39,386 nucleotides of DNA, from the IMG/VR virus record IMGVR_UViG_642979322_000008, one strand, 5' to 3'. The translations under genes were made by a program, and so were the position numbers. The DNA comes from a virus. Taxonomy: Duplodnaviria > Heunggongvirae > Uroviricota > Caudoviricetes. The notes below the pieces were generated by a model, which saw only the letters and a list, made by a program, of their open reading frames with translations, was not told where the DNA came from and did not search any database. Numbering within the stretch: the stretch's first letter is position 1; each line of letters opens with the position of its first letter. This document shows positions 14,524 to 23,451 of this stretch, piece after piece.

Positions 14524-16112
14524 TGGGACGCATAATTGATCTTGACGGAAAACCTTTCTCCTTTGACCCGGAGATGCAGAGTGCCGTGCTGGATATTCCG
14601 CAGATTGCCAGCCGTTATATTGAACATCCGGCCTCGGGTATCACCCCGAACCGGGCGGCGCAGTGCCTTCGCGGGGCTGAACGTGGCGATCTGATTGCCC
14701 AGTCCGATCTGGCGGCTGACATTGAAGAAAAGGATACCCACCTTTTTGCAGAGCTGGGCAAGCGACGTCTTGCCATTCAGAGCGTGCCCTGGAGTATTGA
14801 GCCGCCACCGAACGCCAGCGCGAATGAGAAAAAGGACGCGGAAATGCTCGACGAATATCTGCATTCCGCCGACTGGTTTGATGCCATGCTGTTTGACGCC
14901 ACGGATGCCATCCTGAAGGGCTATTCCTGCATGGAGATTGAGCACGGGATGCTCGGTAAAATGCACATCATCCGCGCCATCCGCTGGCGTGACAGCGGGC
15001 ATTTCTGCCTTAACCCGGATGATTTGAGCGAACTGCGGCTGCGTGACGGCAGCCATGCCGGGGTGGCGTTTCAGCCCTTTGGCTGGGTAGTGCATCAGTC
15101 ACGTTCACGCACCGGTTACGGTGGTGCGACGGGGCTTGTCAGAACGCTTATCTGGCCGTTCATTTTCAAAAACTATTCCGTGCGCGATCTGGCTGAATTT
15201 CTGGAGGTGTACGGCCTGCCGATGAAGGTCGGTAAATACCCGTCCGGGGCAACATCGGAGCAGAAAAGCGCCCTGATGCGGGCGGTGATGGATATCGGGC
15301 GACGTACAGGCGGGATCATCCCGGCCGGGATGTCGCTGGAGTTTCAGGTAGCCGCGAACGGTCAGGCCGATCCGTTTGAAACCATGATTTCGTGGGGGGA
15401 GCGTTCCATCTCCAAAGCTATCCTCGGCGGCACGCTGACCACGGAAGCCGGAGACAAAGGCGCGCGCTCACTGGGTGAGGTGCATAACGAGGTGCGCCGG
15501 GAAATCAGGGATTCTGATTTACGTCAGCTGGCCGCCACGCTGAACCGCGATCTGGTGTATCCGCTGTATGCCCTGAACACCGCCCACGCCATAGATATCC
15601 GTCGCCTGCCGCGTATCTGTTTCCAGACAAAAGAGCCGGGGGATATCACCAAAATCACCAGTGCGGTGATGCAGCTCAGTACGGGGATGGATATTCCTGA
15701 TCCCTGGGTACGGGACCAGACCGGTATTCCACAGCCTGCCCCCGGTGAAGCCATCTTCCGTGTCCGTCAGAGTGGCAATGAACCTGCTCAGACAGACAAA
15801 GAGATGCCACCGGAAAAACAGGAGAAGACAGAGCAGACGGCGCTGTCAGCCCGACTGCCGGAAGCGAAAAGCAGCCCCCGTGATGAACTGGACGATATGG
15901 GGGATGCGGTGCCTGCCCGCCGGTTACAGGACGCTATCGACCCGCTGCTGGAGCCGGTCATTGATGCCATCAGAACGCGGGGGCTGGCGGATGCGCTGGC
16001 AGACCTGCCTGCCCTTTACCGTGAAATGGATGATTCCCGCCTGATGACGCTGCTCAGTGATGCCATGTTTGCTGCGGAAATGAAGGGGATGCTGGATGGC
16101 ACAGGGGATTGA
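14514..16112 (+). CDS. portal protein (Mu gp29-like)
   Basis: 532-aa ORF, GTG start overlapping terminase stop. Confidence 0.8.
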   Translation: MLVVGRIIDLDGKPFSFDPEMQSAVLDIPQIASRYIEHPASGITPNRAAQCLRGAERGDLIAQSDLAADIEEKDTHLFAELGKRRLAIQSVPWSIEPPPNASANEKKDAEMLDEYLHSADWFDAMLFDATDAILKGYSCMEIEHGMLGKMHIIRAIRWRDSGHFCLNPDDLSELRLRDGSHAGVAFQPFGWVVHQSRSRTGYGGATGLVRTLIWPFIFKNYSVRDLAEFLEVYGLPMKVGKYPSGATSEQKSALMRAVMDIGRRTGGIIPAGMSLEFQVAANGQADPFETMISWGERSISKAILGGTLTTEAGDKGARSLGEVHNEVRREIRDSDLRQLAATLNRDLVYPLYALNTAHAIDIRRLPRICFQTKEPGDITKITSAVMQLSTGMDIPDPWVRDQTGIPQPAPGEAIFRVRQSGNEPAQTDKEMPPEKQEKTEQTALSARLPEAKSSPRDELDDMGDAVPARRLQDAIDPLLEPVIDAIRTRGLADALADLPALYREMDDSRLMTLLSDAMFAAEMKGMLDGTGD

Positions 16113-17421
16113 TTTAGGTTATGCCGCCACCCTTCCCTCAAAAGAGGCGGTGGCATACTTCCGCGCCAAAGGGGCGCATATCAGCTGGAACTGGTTCGAA
16201 ACAGACGCAGATGTTCATGCCCGATCGTTCACGGCGGCAAAAGCGGCACGCCTGGACGTACTGACCACACTACAGGCGGAAGTGCAACGGGCCATTGATG
16301 AGGGGATTTCACAGAAAGCATTTATCCGCACACTGACACCCCGCCTGCAAAAGCTGGGATGGTGGGGGAAGCAGATTGTGGTGGACAGCGCCGGTAACGC
16401 AGAAGAAGTACAGCTGGGCAGTCCCCGCCGTCTGGCGCTGATTTACAACGTGAACACCCGCGTGGCTTACAATGCCGGGCGTTACACGCAGATGATGAAC
16501 AACACGGACACGCATCCGTTCTGGCAGTATGTGGCGGTCATGGACAGCCGTACCCGCCCGTCGCATTCCACCCTTAACGGTCTGGTATTCCGCTATGATG
16601 ATCCGTTCTGGAAAACACACTACCCACCCAATGGCTGGAACTGCCGCTGCCGTGTGCGGCCATTGTCTCAGGCCCGTCTGGATGCAATGGGGTTATCCGT
16701 TTCATCCGGTGAGGATCATCTCTCCACCCGCAATGTTGAGGCTGGCGTGGATAAACAGACCGGAGAAGTCAGAGAAATGCCGGTGACCACATATTCAGAT
16801 GGCACCAGAACCATGACACCGGATGTGGGCTGGTCATATAACCCCGGTTCGGCGGCGTTCGGCACAGACCAGGCGCTGATCCGTAAACTGATCGAGGTGA
16901 AAAGCCCGGCGTTACGGGAAATGGTGGTTCAGGAGATGAACAACAGCCCGGAGCGGCAGCTGGCGTTCCGCATCTGGGCAAAAAATATCATGAAAACCCG
17001 GCGCGGTGGTCACGATATCCGCACGCTGGGCTTTATGACCGAAAGTATTGCGCAGGCAGTGGAAAGCCGGACAGGAACGCCACCGGCCCGCCTGCTGGCG
17101 ATGAGCGGTAAAAATGTGCTCCATGCGGACAGTGTGAAACATCAGAATGACGGTATCGCCCTGACGCCGGAGGATTTCGCGCAGCTTCCCGCCATGCTGG
17201 CTGCCCCCGATGCCGTGCTGTGGGATCATGTCCATCAGAACCTGCTTTACATCACTGAAACCCGTGACGGAACGGCAAAGATTGCCGTCAATGCGCCTTA
17301 TGGTGTGAAGCGCCAGCCGGATAAGCTGGATGTGGTAATTAATGCTTACCGGGTAAATAAATTTGATATTGAAAAAGCAATAGAGGGCGGAAAGCTGGAA
17401 CTACTGGAAGGTAAATTGTAA
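16096..17421 (+). CDS. head morphogenesis protein, Mu F (gp30)-like
   Basis: 441-aa ORF following portal, overlapping start. Confidence 0.75.
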   Translation: MAQGIDLGYAATLPSKEAVAYFRAKGAHISWNWFETDADVHARSFTAAKAARLDVLTTLQAEVQRAIDEGISQKAFIRTLTPRLQKLGWWGKQIVVDSAGNAEEVQLGSPRRLALIYNVNTRVAYNAGRYTQMMNNTDTHPFWQYVAVMDSRTRPSHSTLNGLVFRYDDPFWKTHYPPNGWNCRCRVRPLSQARLDAMGLSVSSGEDHLSTRNVEAGVDKQTGEVREMPVTTYSDGTRTMTPDVGWSYNPGSAAFGTDQALIRKLIEVKSPALREMVVQEMNNSPERQLAFRIWAKNIMKTRRGGHDIRTLGFMTESIAQAVESRTGTPPARLLAMSGKNVLHADSVKHQNDGIALTPEDFAQLPAMLAAPDAVLWDHVHQNLLYITETRDGTAKIAVNAPYGVKRQPDKLDVVINAYRVNKFDIEKAIEGGKLELLEGKL

Positions 17422-17539
17422 GCCGGTGACGGGGGTCGAACCCGCATAAACATATGACCCCTGAGGGTTTATGCCGCTTTACCAGTTAAGAGTACACCGG
17501 CCTGTATTTATTTTAATCAGATAGTTTTAAGGAGGCAAC

Positions 17540-18013
17540 ATGTCATCCATCGATGCAGCCGTGGTGGTGGACGTTGCGCGTCTCCAGCGGGTCTTTGCCC
17601 GGCTTCAGTTTGTGGGTGGTGGAAAAGACCTGGCCCGCAGTGTGGCGTCCAGCCTTCTGTCATCGTCAGAAATGGCGTTTGAACAGGAAAAAGAGCCGGA
17701 CGGCGAACGCTGGCATGACTGGTCAGATCCTTACCGCAAGTGGCGTACCCGTAAGGGAAACATGCCCGGCAAAATCCTGACGCTGAACGGCGATCTGGCC
17801 CGACGCCTGACCACGGATTATGGCGATACCTGGGCGCTGATTGGATCAAATGAGCCTTATGCGGCCATTCATCAGTGGGGTGGCCTGCCAGGTATGCCGC
17901 CTGGACCGGCGGCCATTGGTGCACGTCCGTATATGGGTTTTGATCAGGTGGCAGAGCAGGAGATCATGGACGAAATCAGAAAACGCTTTAAAAAGGCCAC
18001 AGAAACGCCTTAA
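17540..18013 (+). CDS. virion morphogenesis protein, Mu G-like
   Basis: 157-aa ORF with RBS AAGGAGG; position between F and I. Confidence 0.7.
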   Translation: MSSIDAAVVVDVARLQRVFARLQFVGGGKDLARSVASSLLSSSEMAFEQEKEPDGERWHDWSDPYRKWRTRKGNMPGKILTLNGDLARRLTTDYGDTWALIGSNEPYAAIHQWGGLPGMPPGPAAIGARPYMGFDQVAEQEIMDEIRKRFKKATETP

Positions 18014-18189: not shown

Positions 18190-19314
18190 ATGAAGACGAA
18201 AAACACGCCCAAACTTGCTTATGCCATTCTGAATGCCATCAGCCTGTCCGCAGACGGGGACGGTGACTGGTGTCAGATCATGCCAGCCGGTCGGGTAAAG
18301 GCCCGTGACGGTCGCCCGGAAAAACCGGCGGAAGGCTGGCTGATCAACCATGCAGCCGTTGAGCGCATGGTCTCCCGTGTTGTGGCGCTCAATCAGCCGG
18401 TGAAAATTGACTACAACCACCAGACCCTGATTGAGGGACATCCGGCACCGGCTGCCGGTTTTGTGATGGCCTCACCGGAGAATTTTCGCTTCAGTGAAGA
18501 GCGAGGTTTCGAGGTGCGCCCGAAGTGGAACCCTCCGGCCCTTGAACATCTGCGTAATAACGAATTCCCCTGGTTTTCACCGGTGATTGGCTATGACGAG
18601 AGCACCGGCGAACCTGTCGAACTTCGGATGCTGGCTATTACCGGTGACCCCGGTCTGACCGGCATGAATCCTGTCGCCGCACTGTCGGCGGATGACCTTT
18701 ATAACGCCTTAAACCCTCCTTTAAAGGATACCTCCATGAATGAGCAATTACGCCAGTTGCTGACGGCGCTCGGTCTGACCGTGGCTGACGGTGACGAATT
18801 TACGCCGGAGCTGGGCACGGCGGCGCTGTCTGCCCTCACCGGGATCAAAACCCGTGCGGATGCACACGACAACCTGAAAACACAGGTCGCCAGTCTGTCG
18901 GCAGAGCTGGAAACCGCAAAAGGCACACCGGCTGGCGGCATTATTGATCTGACGAAATACGTGCCCGTTGAAACGTATAACGCCCTGCGTACCGAATACG
19001 TTGCGCTGTCGGCGCAGCACGGCAGCACCACGCTGGAGCAGGTGCTGGACAAGGCTGAATCCGAAGGGCGCATCTTCAAAAGCGAACGCGGCTATCTGGA
19101 ACAACTGGGCGGGCAGATTGGCGTTGCGGCACTTTCTGCACAGCTTGACGCCCGCCAGCCGGTTGCGGCCCTGACCTCTCTTCAGACCGACACCGTGACC
19201 GTGCCGGATAAAAAGACTGCCACCGCTGCGCTGTCGGCTGAAGATATCGCGGCCGCCAAACTGCTGGGTAAAACCGAAGCCGAGTTCCTGAAAATGAAAG
19301 AGGAAATGCAATAA
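18190..19314 (+). CDS. prohead protease/scaffold, Mu I-like
   Basis: 374-aa ORF upstream of major head gene; Ala/Leu-rich C-terminal scaffold-like half. Confidence 0.75.
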   Translation: MKTKNTPKLAYAILNAISLSADGDGDWCQIMPAGRVKARDGRPEKPAEGWLINHAAVERMVSRVVALNQPVKIDYNHQTLIEGHPAPAAGFVMASPENFRFSEERGFEVRPKWNPPALEHLRNNEFPWFSPVIGYDESTGEPVELRMLAITGDPGLTGMNPVAALSADDLYNALNPPLKDTSMNEQLRQLLTALGLTVADGDEFTPELGTAALSALTGIKTRADAHDNLKTQVASLSAELETAKGTPAGGIIDLTKYVPVETYNALRTEYVALSAQHGSTTLEQVLDKAESEGRIFKSERGYLEQLGGQIGVAALSAQLDARQPVAALTSLQTDTVTVPDKKTATAALSAEDIAAAKLLGKTEAEFLKMKEEMQ

Positions 19315-20261
19315 TGCCTACCCCGATTACACCGGCGATGATCACAGCCCTGATGACGGGCTACCGTTCTGATTTTCAGGCCGGGATGTCCATGGCCCCG
19401 TCGCAGTATAAAAAAATTGCGATGACCGTGCCCTCCACATCGAAATCCAACACCTACGGCTGGCTGGGGCAGTTCCCGCAGTTCCGTGAGTGGATCGGCT
19501 CCCGCGTCATCGAGAAGATGAAAGCCTATGGCTATGCCATCGTGAACAAAACTTTTGAAGGCACTGTCGCCATTAGCCGCGATGACTTCGAAGACGACAA
19601 CCTCGGTATTTATTCCCCGTTGTTCCAGGAGATGGGGCGCGCTGCGGCGGTACAACCGGATGAGCTGGTCTTTGCTGCCCTGCGTGACGGGATCAGTGCG
19701 GCCTGCTATGACGGTCAGAACTTCTTTGATACCGAACATCCGGTTTACCCCAAAGTGGATGGCTCCGGGGATGCGCAGATGGTCAGCAATATGTTTGTGG
19801 CAAAAACCGGCTCTGTCGGCGCACAGGCTGATTACAGCGGTCCGGCCTGGTATCTGCTTGACTGCTCCCGCGCGGTAAAACCGCTGATTTATCAGGATCG
19901 CCGTAAGGCTGAACTGGTTGCCCAGACCAAAGTCGATGAAGGTCGCGCATTCACCGATAACGAATTTGTGTTTGGTGCATCCGCCCGTCGCAATGTGGGC
20001 TACGGCTTCTGGCAGATGGCCTACATGATGCAGTCACCGCTGACGCTGGATGCACTGTGGCACGGCTGGTCAGCCATGCGCGAATTTACCGCTGACGGTG
20101 GCCGCAAACTCGGCATTAAACCCACCCATATTGTTGTCCCCACCTCGCTGGAAAAACAGGCGGTGCAGCTGCTGGAGCGTGAACTGTTCGCAGACGGAAA
20201 CGCAACCGTCTCTAACGAGATGAAGGGTAAGCTGGAGCTGGTTGTCGCGGATTATCTGTAA
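19314..20261 (+). CDS. major head subunit, Mu T-like
   Basis: 315-aa ORF, start overlapping protease stop. Confidence 0.8.
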   Translation: MPTPITPAMITALMTGYRSDFQAGMSMAPSQYKKIAMTVPSTSKSNTYGWLGQFPQFREWIGSRVIEKMKAYGYAIVNKTFEGTVAISRDDFEDDNLGIYSPLFQEMGRAAAVQPDELVFAALRDGISAACYDGQNFFDTEHPVYPKVDGSGDAQMVSNMFVAKTGSVGAQADYSGPAWYLLDCSRAVKPLIYQDRRKAELVAQTKVDEGRAFTDNEFVFGASARRNVGYGFWQMAYMMQSPLTLDALWHGWSAMREFTADGGRKLGIKPTHIVVPTSLEKQAVQLLERELFADGNATVSNEMKGKLELVVADYL

Positions 20262-20304
20262 ACGGTGAGCCGGGCTTACGGCCCGGCCCCTGCGGAGGGC
20301 AAAT

Positions 20305-20733
20305 ATGAATGAACATCACACTGTGGCAGCAACAGATGATTCAGGTCTTCAGGTCAGTGGTGACAATTCTGTCACGGTGCTGGCAGAAGTGCGTTGCAGT
20401 CGTTCGGCGTTTCGTCGTGCGGGGTTCCTGTTCACGCGTGGACGTCAGCAGGTTGAGGTCACCCCGGAGCAGCTTGCCCGACTGGAGGAGGAGCCATGCC
20501 TCACTGTGCGAATACTACAGACGTCTGCTGATGATGCGGGGAGCGTGGCGGGTGTGGTTCATGCAGTGGCCGGTACAGATTTAGCCGAAGCCGAAGCCGA
20601 AGCCGAAGCCGAAGCCGAAGCCGAAGCCGAAGCCGAAGCCGAAGCCGAAGCCGAAGCCGAAGCCGAAGCCGAAGCCGGACAGGATGCTCCCCGGAAAAAG
20701 ACCGGTAACAAAGCGGAACAGGCCCGTGCATGA
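20305..20733 (+). CDS. small head-region protein with (Ala-Glu)15 tract
   Basis: 142-aa ORF with GGAGG RBS; contains in-frame (GCCGAA)15. Confidence 0.55.
   Translation: MNEHHTVAATDDSGLQVSGDNSVTVLAEVRCSRSAFRRAGFLFTRGRQQVEVTPEQLARLEEEPCLTVRILQTSADDAGSVAGVVHAVAGTDLAEAEAEAEAEAEAEAEAEAEAEAEAEAEAEAGQDAPRKKTGNKAEQARA
20584..20673 (+). repeat. perfect hexanucleotide tandem repeat (GCCGAA)x15
   Basis: Seen directly: 15 uninterrupted GCCGAA units followed by GCCGGA. Confidence 0.95.
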
Positions 20734-21149
20734 ATTACGCCACTGAAACCGATATGCGGGCGCGTTACCGCGAGGATTTGCTCAGGCCGTTACTGGCTGT
20801 GCCCCGTTCGGATGAGCCGGACACGCGCAAGCTGAACCGGGCGCTGACAGATGCGTCAGCCCTTATCGACAGCTATCTGTCCGCCCGTTACACGTTGCCG
20901 CTGGAGGTTATTCCGGCCGTTCTTGTTCAGCACTGTTGCGCGATTGCCTTTTATTACCTGTGCGATCAGCGAGCCTCCGATCAGGCGCGTGACCGTTACC
21001 GTGAAGCGCTGGCCTGGCTGAAAGATGTCATGAACGGCAATGTGCCGGTCGGTGTGGATACGAACGGTGCGGCCCCTGAATCCGGGGATTTACCACAGGT
21101 TCAGTCTGATGCAGCGGTATTCGGGCGCAACCAGAAGGGCTTCATATGA
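20730..21149 (+). CDS. head-tail connector/neck protein, Mu gp36-like
   Basis: 139-aa ORF downstream of major head gene. Confidence 0.6.
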   Translation: MNYATETDMRARYREDLLRPLLAVPRSDEPDTRKLNRALTDASALIDSYLSARYTLPLEVIPAVLVQHCCAIAFYYLCDQRASDQARDRYREALAWLKDVMNGNVPVGVDTNGAAPESGDLPQVQSDAAVFGRNQKGFI

Positions 21150-21706
21150 TTACGGAAACCGAACAGGCATACATCGCCCGTATCCGTGAGTATTTCGGGA
21201 ATGAACTGGTGTCTGTTGACACGCATCCCGGCGACTGGAGCGACAGCGTACTGCGCACCATGCTGATTAACGCCCCGGCGATCTACGTTGCCTGGCTGGG
21301 TGCCGGTGAAGGCCGTACCCGTGGTCGCCTGGTCAGTCACTGGGTGTTCTACGTCATCGGCGACATGCTCAACGGGCGTGAGGCCAGCCGTCCCGGACTG
21401 TATCAGATTGTGGCCCGGCTGATTGCCGTGCTTAACGGCTTCAGAACAGAAAAAACCTCACCGCTTTACTTTGAAAAGGCGGTCAACGGTTACACCGAAA
21501 CCCAGGCGGACAGTGGTGCGGTGATGTATGCGCTTTATTTCTCCTGCGAGGAAATGATCGCACCGCTGACCGATACCAGCTCGCTGGACGACTTCCTGCG
21601 TCATTACGAAACCTTTGTGGAGCCGCCCGGTACGCCGCCGTTTGAGGCACATATTGATTTGCCGGGGAACACGACAACGGCGGTCGAACCGCCGGAGGAA
21701 CTGTAA
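21146..21706 (+). CDS. neck/tail completion protein, Mu gp37-like
   Basis: 186-aa ORF overlapping neighbours. Confidence 0.6.
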   Translation: MITETEQAYIARIREYFGNELVSVDTHPGDWSDSVLRTMLINAPAIYVAWLGAGEGRTRGRLVSHWVFYVIGDMLNGREASRPGLYQIVARLIAVLNGFRTEKTSPLYFEKAVNGYTETQADSGAVMYALYFSCEEMIAPLTDTSSLDDFLRHYETFVEPPGTPPFEAHIDLPGNTTTAVEPPEEL

Positions 21707-21952
21707 ATGAAAACCATCTTTATCAAACCCGCGCCGGGACGCCTGATTCGTGATCCCGACACAATGCGCCCGCTGGCACAGGAGGGGGAGGAAAAGCCCT
21801 TTACGCCGTTCTGGTGTCGGCGTCTTGATGACGGCGATGTCATTCAGGCTGAAAAAGCCGCTGAAGAGGCTCCGGCTGTATCTGCGGATGCAACGACTGC
21901 GACAGAAAAACCGGTCGCCCAACCGGCATCCGATAAGGAGAAACCGCAATGA
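21707..21952 (+). CDS. small protein upstream of sheath (Mu gp38-like position)
   Basis: 81-aa ORF, acidic Ala-rich C-terminus. Confidence 0.5.
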   Translation: MKTIFIKPAPGRLIRDPDTMRPLAQEGEEKPFTPFWCRRLDDGDVIQAEKAAEEAPAVSADATTATEKPVAQPASDKEKPQ

Positions 21953-23451
21953 TTAATTTTGACGGGATCGGTAATGACCGCCGTATACCGCTGATTGAGG
22001 TTGAGTTTAATAACTCCATGGCTGTCACCGGCACTCCGGCACAGCGTCAGTGTGTGCTGCTGTTTGGTCAGGCGAGAATGAAAGAGAATGCCGTGGACGG
22101 TGCCGGTGTTCTGGATGTTCCGGTCAGGATCACCCGTGCGTCTCAGGCAACAGAACTCTGGGGGCGCGGCTCCATGATTGCCCTGATGGTGGCGGAATTT
22201 ATCGCCATCAATCCTGATGCTGAACTGTATGCCATTGCTCAGGGGAACGGCACCGGACAGGCAACGGCTGCGGCCATGAATCTGACCGGAACGGTCACCC
22301 GTGACGGGATTGTTTATGCCTGCGTGGGGGGGCGGCGTTATACACTCCCGGCACCAAAAGGTAAGAAAGGCAAAGAACTGACCGACGAGCTGGCCGCGCT
22401 GATCAATGCCGATCCTGACGCGCCCTTCACGGCCTCCTCTGGTGCAGGAAGTGGTGATAATGGCGCAGGTCTGAAAGGGTCTCTGGGGATCACCGCCCGC
22501 TTTACCGGTGAATGCTCCGTTCATGATGTGCGCCTGAACTATCACGACGGGGAAGCAACCCCGGAAGGAATACAGGTCGCTATAGCCTATCCGAAACAAA
22601 AAGCGGCTAACCCGGATATCACCCGAAGCGTGGCGGGTATGGGCGATCGCCAGTACAACTATGTCGTCATGCCCTATAAGGATGATGCAAACCTGAAAAT
22701 CATCAGTGATGAGCTTCTGAAACGCTGGGGACCGGCCAAAATGTCTGACGGCGTGCTGTGGCTGGCACATACCGGCACGTTTGGTGAGGTGCAGGCATTC
22801 GGGGCAAAACGCAATGATTTTCTGGCGACCTGCACATCCATTCCCAAAGCCCCTGAACCGGATTACCTCTGGGCAGCGGCGGTCTGTGCCACCTGTGCAC
22901 CCTCTCTGGGAGCAGATCCTGCGCGTCCGCTTCAGACGCTGGCGCTTCCGTCACGCATGGCCCCGGCTCCGGCCGATCGTCTGACGCGTGAAGAGCGTAA
23001 CAGTCTGCTGTGGGGAGGGATTGCCACGGTCAGTGTGGCTGCCGGTGATGTGGTTCAGATCGAACGTCAGGTGACCATGTATCGCCAGAACGTGTACGGC
23101 GAAAGTGATCCCAGCTATCTGGATGTGGAAACCATCTACACCCTCTCCTGGCTGCGTTATTCCCTGCGTACTTTTATCACACAACGTTTTCCGCGCCATA
23201 AACTGGCTGATGACGGGACGCCCGTTCGTGCCGGTCAGAATATCGTGACGCCGGAGATCATGAAGCTTCAGTTAATTTCGCTGGGTGAAGAGTGGGTGGA
23301 ACTCGGGCTGGTCGAAAATCTGGACACCTTTAAAAAGAATCTGCTTGTGGAGCGTAATGCGTCAGATCGAAACCGTCTTGACGTGTTATGCACGCCGGAT
23401 CTGGTTAACCAGTTCCGCTTCCTGGCAGCACAGATCCGTTTCATTTTGTGA
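21949..23451 (+). CDS. contractile tail sheath protein (Mu L-like)
   Basis: 500-aa ORF directly upstream of tail tube gene. Confidence 0.8.
   Translation: MINFDGIGNDRRIPLIEVEFNNSMAVTGTPAQRQCVLLFGQARMKENAVDGAGVLDVPVRITRASQATELWGRGSMIALMVAEFIAINPDAELYAIAQGNGTGQATAAAMNLTGTVTRDGIVYACVGGRRYTLPAPKGKKGKELTDELAALINADPDAPFTASSGAGSGDNGAGLKGSLGITARFTGECSVHDVRLNYHDGEATPEGIQVAIAYPKQKAANPDITRSVAGMGDRQYNYVVMPYKDDANLKIISDELLKRWGPAKMSDGVLWLAHTGTFGEVQAFGAKRNDFLATCTSIPKAPEPDYLWAAAVCATCAPSLGADPARPLQTLALPSRMAPAPADRLTREERNSLLWGGIATVSVAAGDVVQIERQVTMYRQNVYGESDPSYLDVETIYTLSWLRYSLRTFITQRFPRHKLADDGTPVRAGQNIVTPEIMKLQLISLGEEWVELGLVENLDTFKKNLLVERNASDRNRLDVLCTPDLVNQFRFLAAQIRFIL

Follow-up and report, generated by a model that had tools for sequence, protein, structure and literature searches.

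Among the closest known systems to the locus described here are the proteins Mu gp35 (Mup35) and FluMu HI1506, which are built from an N-terminal alpha/beta domain, a flexible acidic region, and a C-terminal helical domain of ~45 residues, and which are encoded between the gpT and gp36 genes with a stop/start overlap with gp36. Mu gp35 is considered "probably structural" and perhaps connector-related, but was not resolved in the cryo-EM structure of Mu, a phage whose capsid is without cement proteins and in which gp36 serves as the adaptor (PMC11915804). The Bacillus subtilis skin-prophage protein YqbF (PDB 2HJQ) is likewise listed among the closest known systems. Comparable repeats are found in the 6-bp variable number tandem repeats (VNTRs) of the MLVA scheme for Escherichia coli O157:H7 (O157-10, TR3/4/7, Vhec4), hexanucleotide arrays that change by whole units and differ between near-clonal isolates. 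Mutation rates of 4e-5 to 2e-3 per generation have been reported for E. coli O157 6-bp VNTRs, with instability growing with allele length and alleles above ~13 units being the least stable (PMC3777172). In phase-variable contingency loci, slippage at a simple repeat also generates heritable diversity at a high rate, there by means of a frameshift on/off switch.

The 142-aa open reading frame (ORF) studied here shares with Mu gp35 and HI1506 the homologous N-terminal domain, the acidic region that follows it, and the position between gpT and gp36 with the overlapping stop and start codons. Whereas the canonical proteins continue into the C-terminal helical domain and contain no tandem repeat, the Sp18-type protein ends in an (Ala-Glu)n tract, (AE)n, followed by a basic tail of 17-20 residues. 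The tract behaves like the well-known O157 hexanucleotide VNTRs and represents no new kind of mechanism; it differs from the MLVA loci in residing in a Mu-like prophage, and its gene was present in 228 of 5426 complete E. coli genomes. We did not class it as a phase-variable contingency locus: its unit, at 6 bp, is divisible by three and falls within the ORF, the observed alleles differ by multiples of 6, and only the length and charge of the protein change. Our literature search found no paper describing this locus; the main MLVA typing papers lay outside that search, and earlier use of the tract as a marker is possible.

The window, that is, the whole stretch of 39,386 nucleotides analyzed, shared 99.99% identity with the Sp18 prophage of E. 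coli O157:H7 Sakai, in which the ORF corresponds to ECs_4975, and on the strength of its sequence we assign it to a Mu-like prophage of the Sp18 type from E. coli O157:H7. The insertion site is fbpC here, versus sorM in Sakai, the right end of the prophage being at ~38548/38549 and the window continuing to 39386; the fbpC junction is common to only three complete genomes (6535WT, 6535NalR, and M1300706002). Pfam searches placed the ORF in a Mu-type head module (Table 1), directly flanked by the Mu-like_gpT and Phage_Mu_Gp36 genes, so that the location between the major head and neck genes given in an earlier, sequence-only reading of this DNA proved right. The ORF is preceded by a ribosome-binding site (GGAGGG, 20294-20299), its stop codon overlaps the gp36 start (ATGA), and gp36 is apparently translationally coupled to it. 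The GC-rich hairpin downstream of gpT lacks a T-run and was rejected as a canonical terminator. A terminator is predicted at the matching position in Mu, and a hairpin of different sequence occupies the gpT-gp35 gap of an Edwardsiella relative (L015, ~1855-1880); the hairpin in the window may act as a conserved attenuator or mRNA stabilizer 3' of the major capsid gene. Elsewhere in the prophage, the RefSeq (PGAP) annotation of matching genomes places a "tRNA-OTHER" between MuF and G, corresponding to ~17421-17501 on the minus strand of the window; ARAGORN and Rfam searches of the window, this interval included, detected no tRNA or known RNA. The 9-bp repeats ACCAAAAAT / CAAAAATAC, at 274-296 and 604-632 near the left end and the repressor region, may be Mu-type operator or transposase-binding sites.

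Table 1. Features of the head module and of the repeat-bearing ORF, in window coordinates.
Feature	Coordinates	Strand	Evidence or remarks
MuF	16096-17421		Pfam
Virion morphogenesis G	17540-18013		Pfam
Protease/scaffold I	18190-19314		Pfam
Major head protein gpT, Mu-type	19314-20261	+	Pfam Mu-like_gpT, E 7e-119
GC-rich hairpin, 8-bp stem	20269-20287	+	In the 43-nt gap from the gpT stop to the ribosome-binding site/start of the ORF
142-aa ORF, Sp18-type homologue of Mu gp35 / FluMu HI1506	20305-20733	+	Pfam, PDB 2OUT, tblastn, synteny
Predicted folded N-terminal domain, residues 23-78, beta-beta-alpha-beta (FluMu_N)	20371-20538	+	AlphaFold2
Linker, residues 79-93, GSVAGVVHAVAGTDL	20539-20583	+	Last part alignable to canonical members (Edwardsiella relative, Mu; DNA and protein); pLDDT <50
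Perfect hexanucleotide VNTR (GCCGAA)15	20584-20673	+	In frame; (Ala-Glu)15, ORF residues 94-123
Imperfect end unit GCCGGA (Ala-Gly), the sixteenth	20674-20679	+	Directly 3' of (GCCGAA)15
Short basic C-terminal tail QDAPRKKTGNKAEQARA and stop codon	20680-20733	+	Stands in place of the lost C-terminal helical domain
Mu gp36-type head-tail adaptor	20730-21149	+	Pfam Phage_Mu_Gp36, E 4e-35
gp37	21146-21706		Pfam
Tail sheath	21949-23451		Pfam

The ORF, which RefSeq names "HI1506-related protein", scored 34.9 bits with FluMu_N (Pfam PF17891; cut-off 25.8, E 1.2e-8) and also matched the HI1506 NMR structure (PDB 2OUT; E 2e-4) and Mu gene 35 (tblastn, E 2e-4). It fell in PHROG 3622, the PHROGs matches being to function-unknown families only, and a search of NCBIfam returned no match. 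AlphaFold2, run on a 20-sequence alignment from which the Mu sequence was left out, gave pLDDT values above 90 over residues ~23-75 and below 50 over residues 79-142, so that this whole stretch, the (AE)15 tract included, is predicted to be disordered. Across the family, the alignment columns C31, R33, R38, G46, L57, P64, and L66 do not vary. Downstream of the tract, the basic tail reads ...KAKQAKKARA in other alleles and is conserved across sublineages, in nearly all genomes. Some distant relatives (P0088, P0092, and P0090) carry two tandem FluMu_N domains, or one such domain fused to a coiled coil and a basic tail; since these architectures differ, the N-terminal domain would seem to be a mobile module joined to varied C-terminal parts.

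Comparison across the family revealed where the Sp18-type protein departs from its relatives. Homologues from Mu, Salmonella, Erwinia, Mixta, Serratia, and Edwardsiella consist of the N-terminal domain, an acidic linker, and the C-terminal helical domain of ~45 residues, whose sequence follows the pattern ...RIRxAxAxLxxxNPxxFTxxGxPKVxAVSxxLG... The motif searched for in this domain, G-x-P-x-V...V...LG, was present in 82 of 84 other family members versus 0 of 82 Sp18-type proteins from E. coli and Shigella, and none of the 84 non-Sp18 members contained a dipeptide repeat of at least three copies. The breadth of the family rests mainly on a second search, as a first search of representatives gave only 14 matches; a scan of genome contigs yielded one relative only, from Edwardsiella. 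The closest canonical relative, a prophage of Edwardsiella anguillarum with like gpT and gp36 neighbors, showed DNA homology over the N-terminal domain and the linker that ended at the start of the tract and resumed at the start of gp36. These comparisons indicate that the Sp18 lineage lost the C-terminal domain and that the (AE)n tract lies at the resulting junction, exactly where the domain begins in other members. Because the motif is missing from all 82 proteins, the homology stops at the tract, and residues 79-142 are predicted to be disordered, we place the Sp18-type ORF in the gp35/HI1506 family as a truncated derivative, which retains the domain and the synteny but not the C-terminal part. 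Our results also revise the sequence-only description of the tract as an acidic linker, since the C-terminal domain is missing from this lineage and the repeat consequently does not lie between two folded parts; the tail that carries it is predicted to be disordered. The basic tail itself may be what is left of the first part of the lost domain, as a weak match to the pattern E-A-x-P-x3-T-G-x-K hints.

The array itself was exactly as first read, with a regular-expression search of the window returning 15 uninterrupted GCCGAA units, in frame and encoding (Ala-Glu)15 in the 142-aa ORF, all of them alike down to synonymous positions. Tandem Repeats Finder reported the interval 20583-20677 with a period of 6, 15.8 copies, 100% matches, no indels, and a score of 190. 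The array is not a chance product, since the expected number of such arrays in the window is about 2e-46 and no other repeat with a period of 3-12 and at least four perfect copies occurs in the whole 39 kb. The GCCGGA end unit was found in all alleles read except that of FORC_043 (L014), where the tract ends in ACCGTA instead, and the one-copy alleles (L010 and L013) read GCCGAAGCCGGA; this end unit is probably part of an ancestral seed, GCCGAA-GCCGGA. Two minus-strand ORFs across the repeat (20501-20731 and 20559-20711; 76 and 50 aa, with (Arg-Leu)n and (Ser-Ala)n) were rejected as genes, being mechanical by-products of the repeat. Each added unit contributes one Ala-Glu pair, that is, two residues and one more negative charge, and the values calculated over the observed alleles are about -3 to -22 for net charge and 5.6 to 4.3 for pI.

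Among 98 sampled complete E. coli genomes, a nonrandom and phylogenetically clustered set, the tract comprised 1-20 units with modes at 8 and 10, which places the 15-unit allele in the upper tail. Extreme alleles were checked in sequence (20 perfect units in F1 E4, 17 in JNEC-KY176, 4 in 7_56_38A, and 1 in UTME-3), and no zero-copy allele was seen among the genomes examined. Draft assemblies often break at the VNTR, and short-read draft copy numbers are unreliable. The cattle strains 118, 119, and 121 carried 15, 14, and 13 units, respectively, with no mismatch in 20,279 + 20,060 flanking bases and with all other annotated proteins identical. Similarly, the window differed from 6535WT, 6535NalR, and M1300706002 by no mismatch in ~39.06 kb and by a single 6-nt gap, corresponding to 15 versus 14 units, while its comparison with Sakai Sp18 gave 3 mismatches in 38.2 kb and 15 versus 8 units. 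The sequence-only reading had expected a slippage-prone, in-frame repeat and had offered identical copy number in all related genomes as the outcome that would speak against it; the range of 1-20 units among related prophages, and differences of 1-2 units between genomes identical over ~40 kb, bear out the former and decisively exclude the latter. Its suggestion of a recent expansion is also consistent with the purity of the array, the 14 units of the nearest relatives, and the 8 units of the 99.99% identical Sakai prophage.

An assembly or sequencing artifact, by which the count of 15 would be wrong and the polymorphism noise, could be imagined from five "partial" proteins of draft assemblies that end at or in the tract (P0054, P0061, P0062, P0064, and P0068). 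Against this, length differences were always exact multiples of 6 in about 100 complete genomes, typical reads are longer than the 90-bp array, and the copy-number differences are not noise because resequenced or sibling strains gave equal counts (96_1414B/P, 97-3250/97_3250, FRIK2455/2533/2069, 95NR1/95JB1, and 6535WT/NalR). We therefore consider an artifact scarcely credible. As far as comparisons between assemblies allow the rate to be judged, gains and losses of entire GCCGAA units far outpace the accrual of point mutations.

Further alleles illustrate how the array diversifies. In a sublineage ~8% divergent, alleles of 1-2 units occurred together with one of 16 perfect units. The latter suggests another expansion, independent of the first; alternatively, the tract of the 16-unit allele may have been transferred by recombination. 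Variant units (AG, AK, SE, VE, and TE) were single-base derivatives of the GCCGAA unit, and in five database proteins (P0003, P0013, P0015, P0021, and P0066) the GCCGGA unit had expanded instead, giving (AG)n. The tract folded worse than 200 of 200 shuffles, so that its single strand is without hairpin potential or secondary structure; hairpin-driven instability was thus ruled out, and simple misalignment would suffice. The identity of the units at synonymous sites, the single-base origin of the variants, and the absence of structure together point to recent replication slippage rather than to selection for an Ala-Glu peptide. Accordingly, we propose that the locus is a hypermutable hexanucleotide VNTR that keeps the reading frame and lies in the C-terminal, intrinsically disordered tail of an Sp18-type gp35/HI1506 homologue. 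The array would have been seeded by the probable ancestral GCCGAA-GCCGGA after the C-terminal domain degenerated and would change through slipped-strand mispairing on an unstructured, perfectly pure repeat, the 15-unit allele presumably being a recent expansion. The resulting length variation would be tolerated, or nearly neutral, rather than selected as a tuning device.

The strength of selection on the ORF bears on whether the variation is tuned or tolerated. Between two E. coli sublineages, dN/dS over codons 1-93 was 0.71-0.88, with ~0.56-0.59 in the folded core and at least 1.1 in the non-domain flanks, versus 0.04-0.06 for gpT and 0.04-0.10 for gp36; the contrast between the ORF and its neighbors was significant (Fisher p 1e-5 to 2e-3), albeit with few substitutions in the ORF (Sd 6-7.5, Nd 15). 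The dS of the ORF (0.09-0.11; 20305-20583 versus L012-L014) was ~three-fold below the 0.28-0.36 of its neighbors, and its dN 3-7-fold higher; the low dS could reflect small numbers or a mosaic history. Given dN/dS values of 0.7-0.9 against 0.04-0.10 in the neighboring genes, the length variation is most likely tolerated slippage, and tolerated drift is favored over the length tuning envisaged in the earlier reading. Moreover, Sakai Sp18, which is predicted to be intact and packages its own DNA efficiently (PMC2669165), does so with 8 units, so that very different tract lengths coexist with a working head module.

These observations can be set against an adaptive rheostat, in which slippage heritably varies the length and negative charge of the tail of a putative virion protein and selection tunes head-neck assembly, DNA retention or ejection, or particle stability. 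The ORF is kept open behind a strong ribosome-binding site and is apparently coupled to the adaptor gene gp36, the basic tail 3' of the tract persists across sublineages, the calculated shifts in charge and pI are physically large, and the suggested structural role of Mu gp35 would suit such a function. However, gains and losses of 6 bp always leave the frame intact, and for this reason neither the open ORF nor the retained tail is evidence of selection. The constraint on the ORF is relaxed relative to its neighbors, the tract belongs to a tail that is predicted to be disordered and has taken the place of a lost domain, and the canonical family members function with no repeat at all. Among near-clonal isolates the count shifts one unit at a time without an evident preferred length, and the presence of the protein in virions is unproven. 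We thus regard as unlikely selective tuning through such a rheostat, which would span -1 to -20 charges and a contour length of as much as ~14 nm. A stronger form, in which a selected, frame-preserving contingency locus arose in a putative virion morphogenesis gene to compensate for the loss of the C-terminal domain, strikes us as highly doubtful. In that form, phage subpopulations continually generated by slippage, with polyanionic tails of varied length beside a basic tip, would modulate a head-neck step such as DNA retention, ejection timing, or particle stability.

The relaxed constraint could also be read as gene decay, in which the gp35 homologue lost its function together with the C-terminal domain in the Sp18 lineage, leaving a remnant ORF and a repeat that is junk in dispensable sequence. 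Loss of the domain in 82 of 82 Sp18-type proteins, the dN/dS values of the whole ORF and above all of its flanks, and database alleles that are frameshifted, restarted, or truncated (P0073, P0074, P0080, P0081, and P0082) all lean in this direction, although the disrupted alleles may be sequencing errors. The lower dN/dS of the N-terminal core and the retention of its invariant residues argue against decay, and the ORF was intact in at least 209 of the 228 complete genomes with the gene, an open upstream frame being something that translational coupling to gp36 alone could select for. Decay of the gene thus appears distinctly improbable. With an open ORF, a conserved basic tail, and no zero-copy allele, some function, and hence some selection on the tail, may persist. 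The reading we favor, and consider probable, is that of a disordered tail under weak constraint, which tolerates slippage.

The tract thus constitutes a very fast molecular clock within a prophage of many EHEC strains (O157, O26, O103, and O111). Because isolates with identical sequence across 40 kb can be told apart by it, the tract could make outbreak typing sharper. A natural allelic series of 1 to 20 Ala-Glu units is moreover available in this truncated representative of the uncharacterized gp35/HI1506 family, and the series offers a handle on the role of a conserved head-module protein and on the weight of its C-terminal part.
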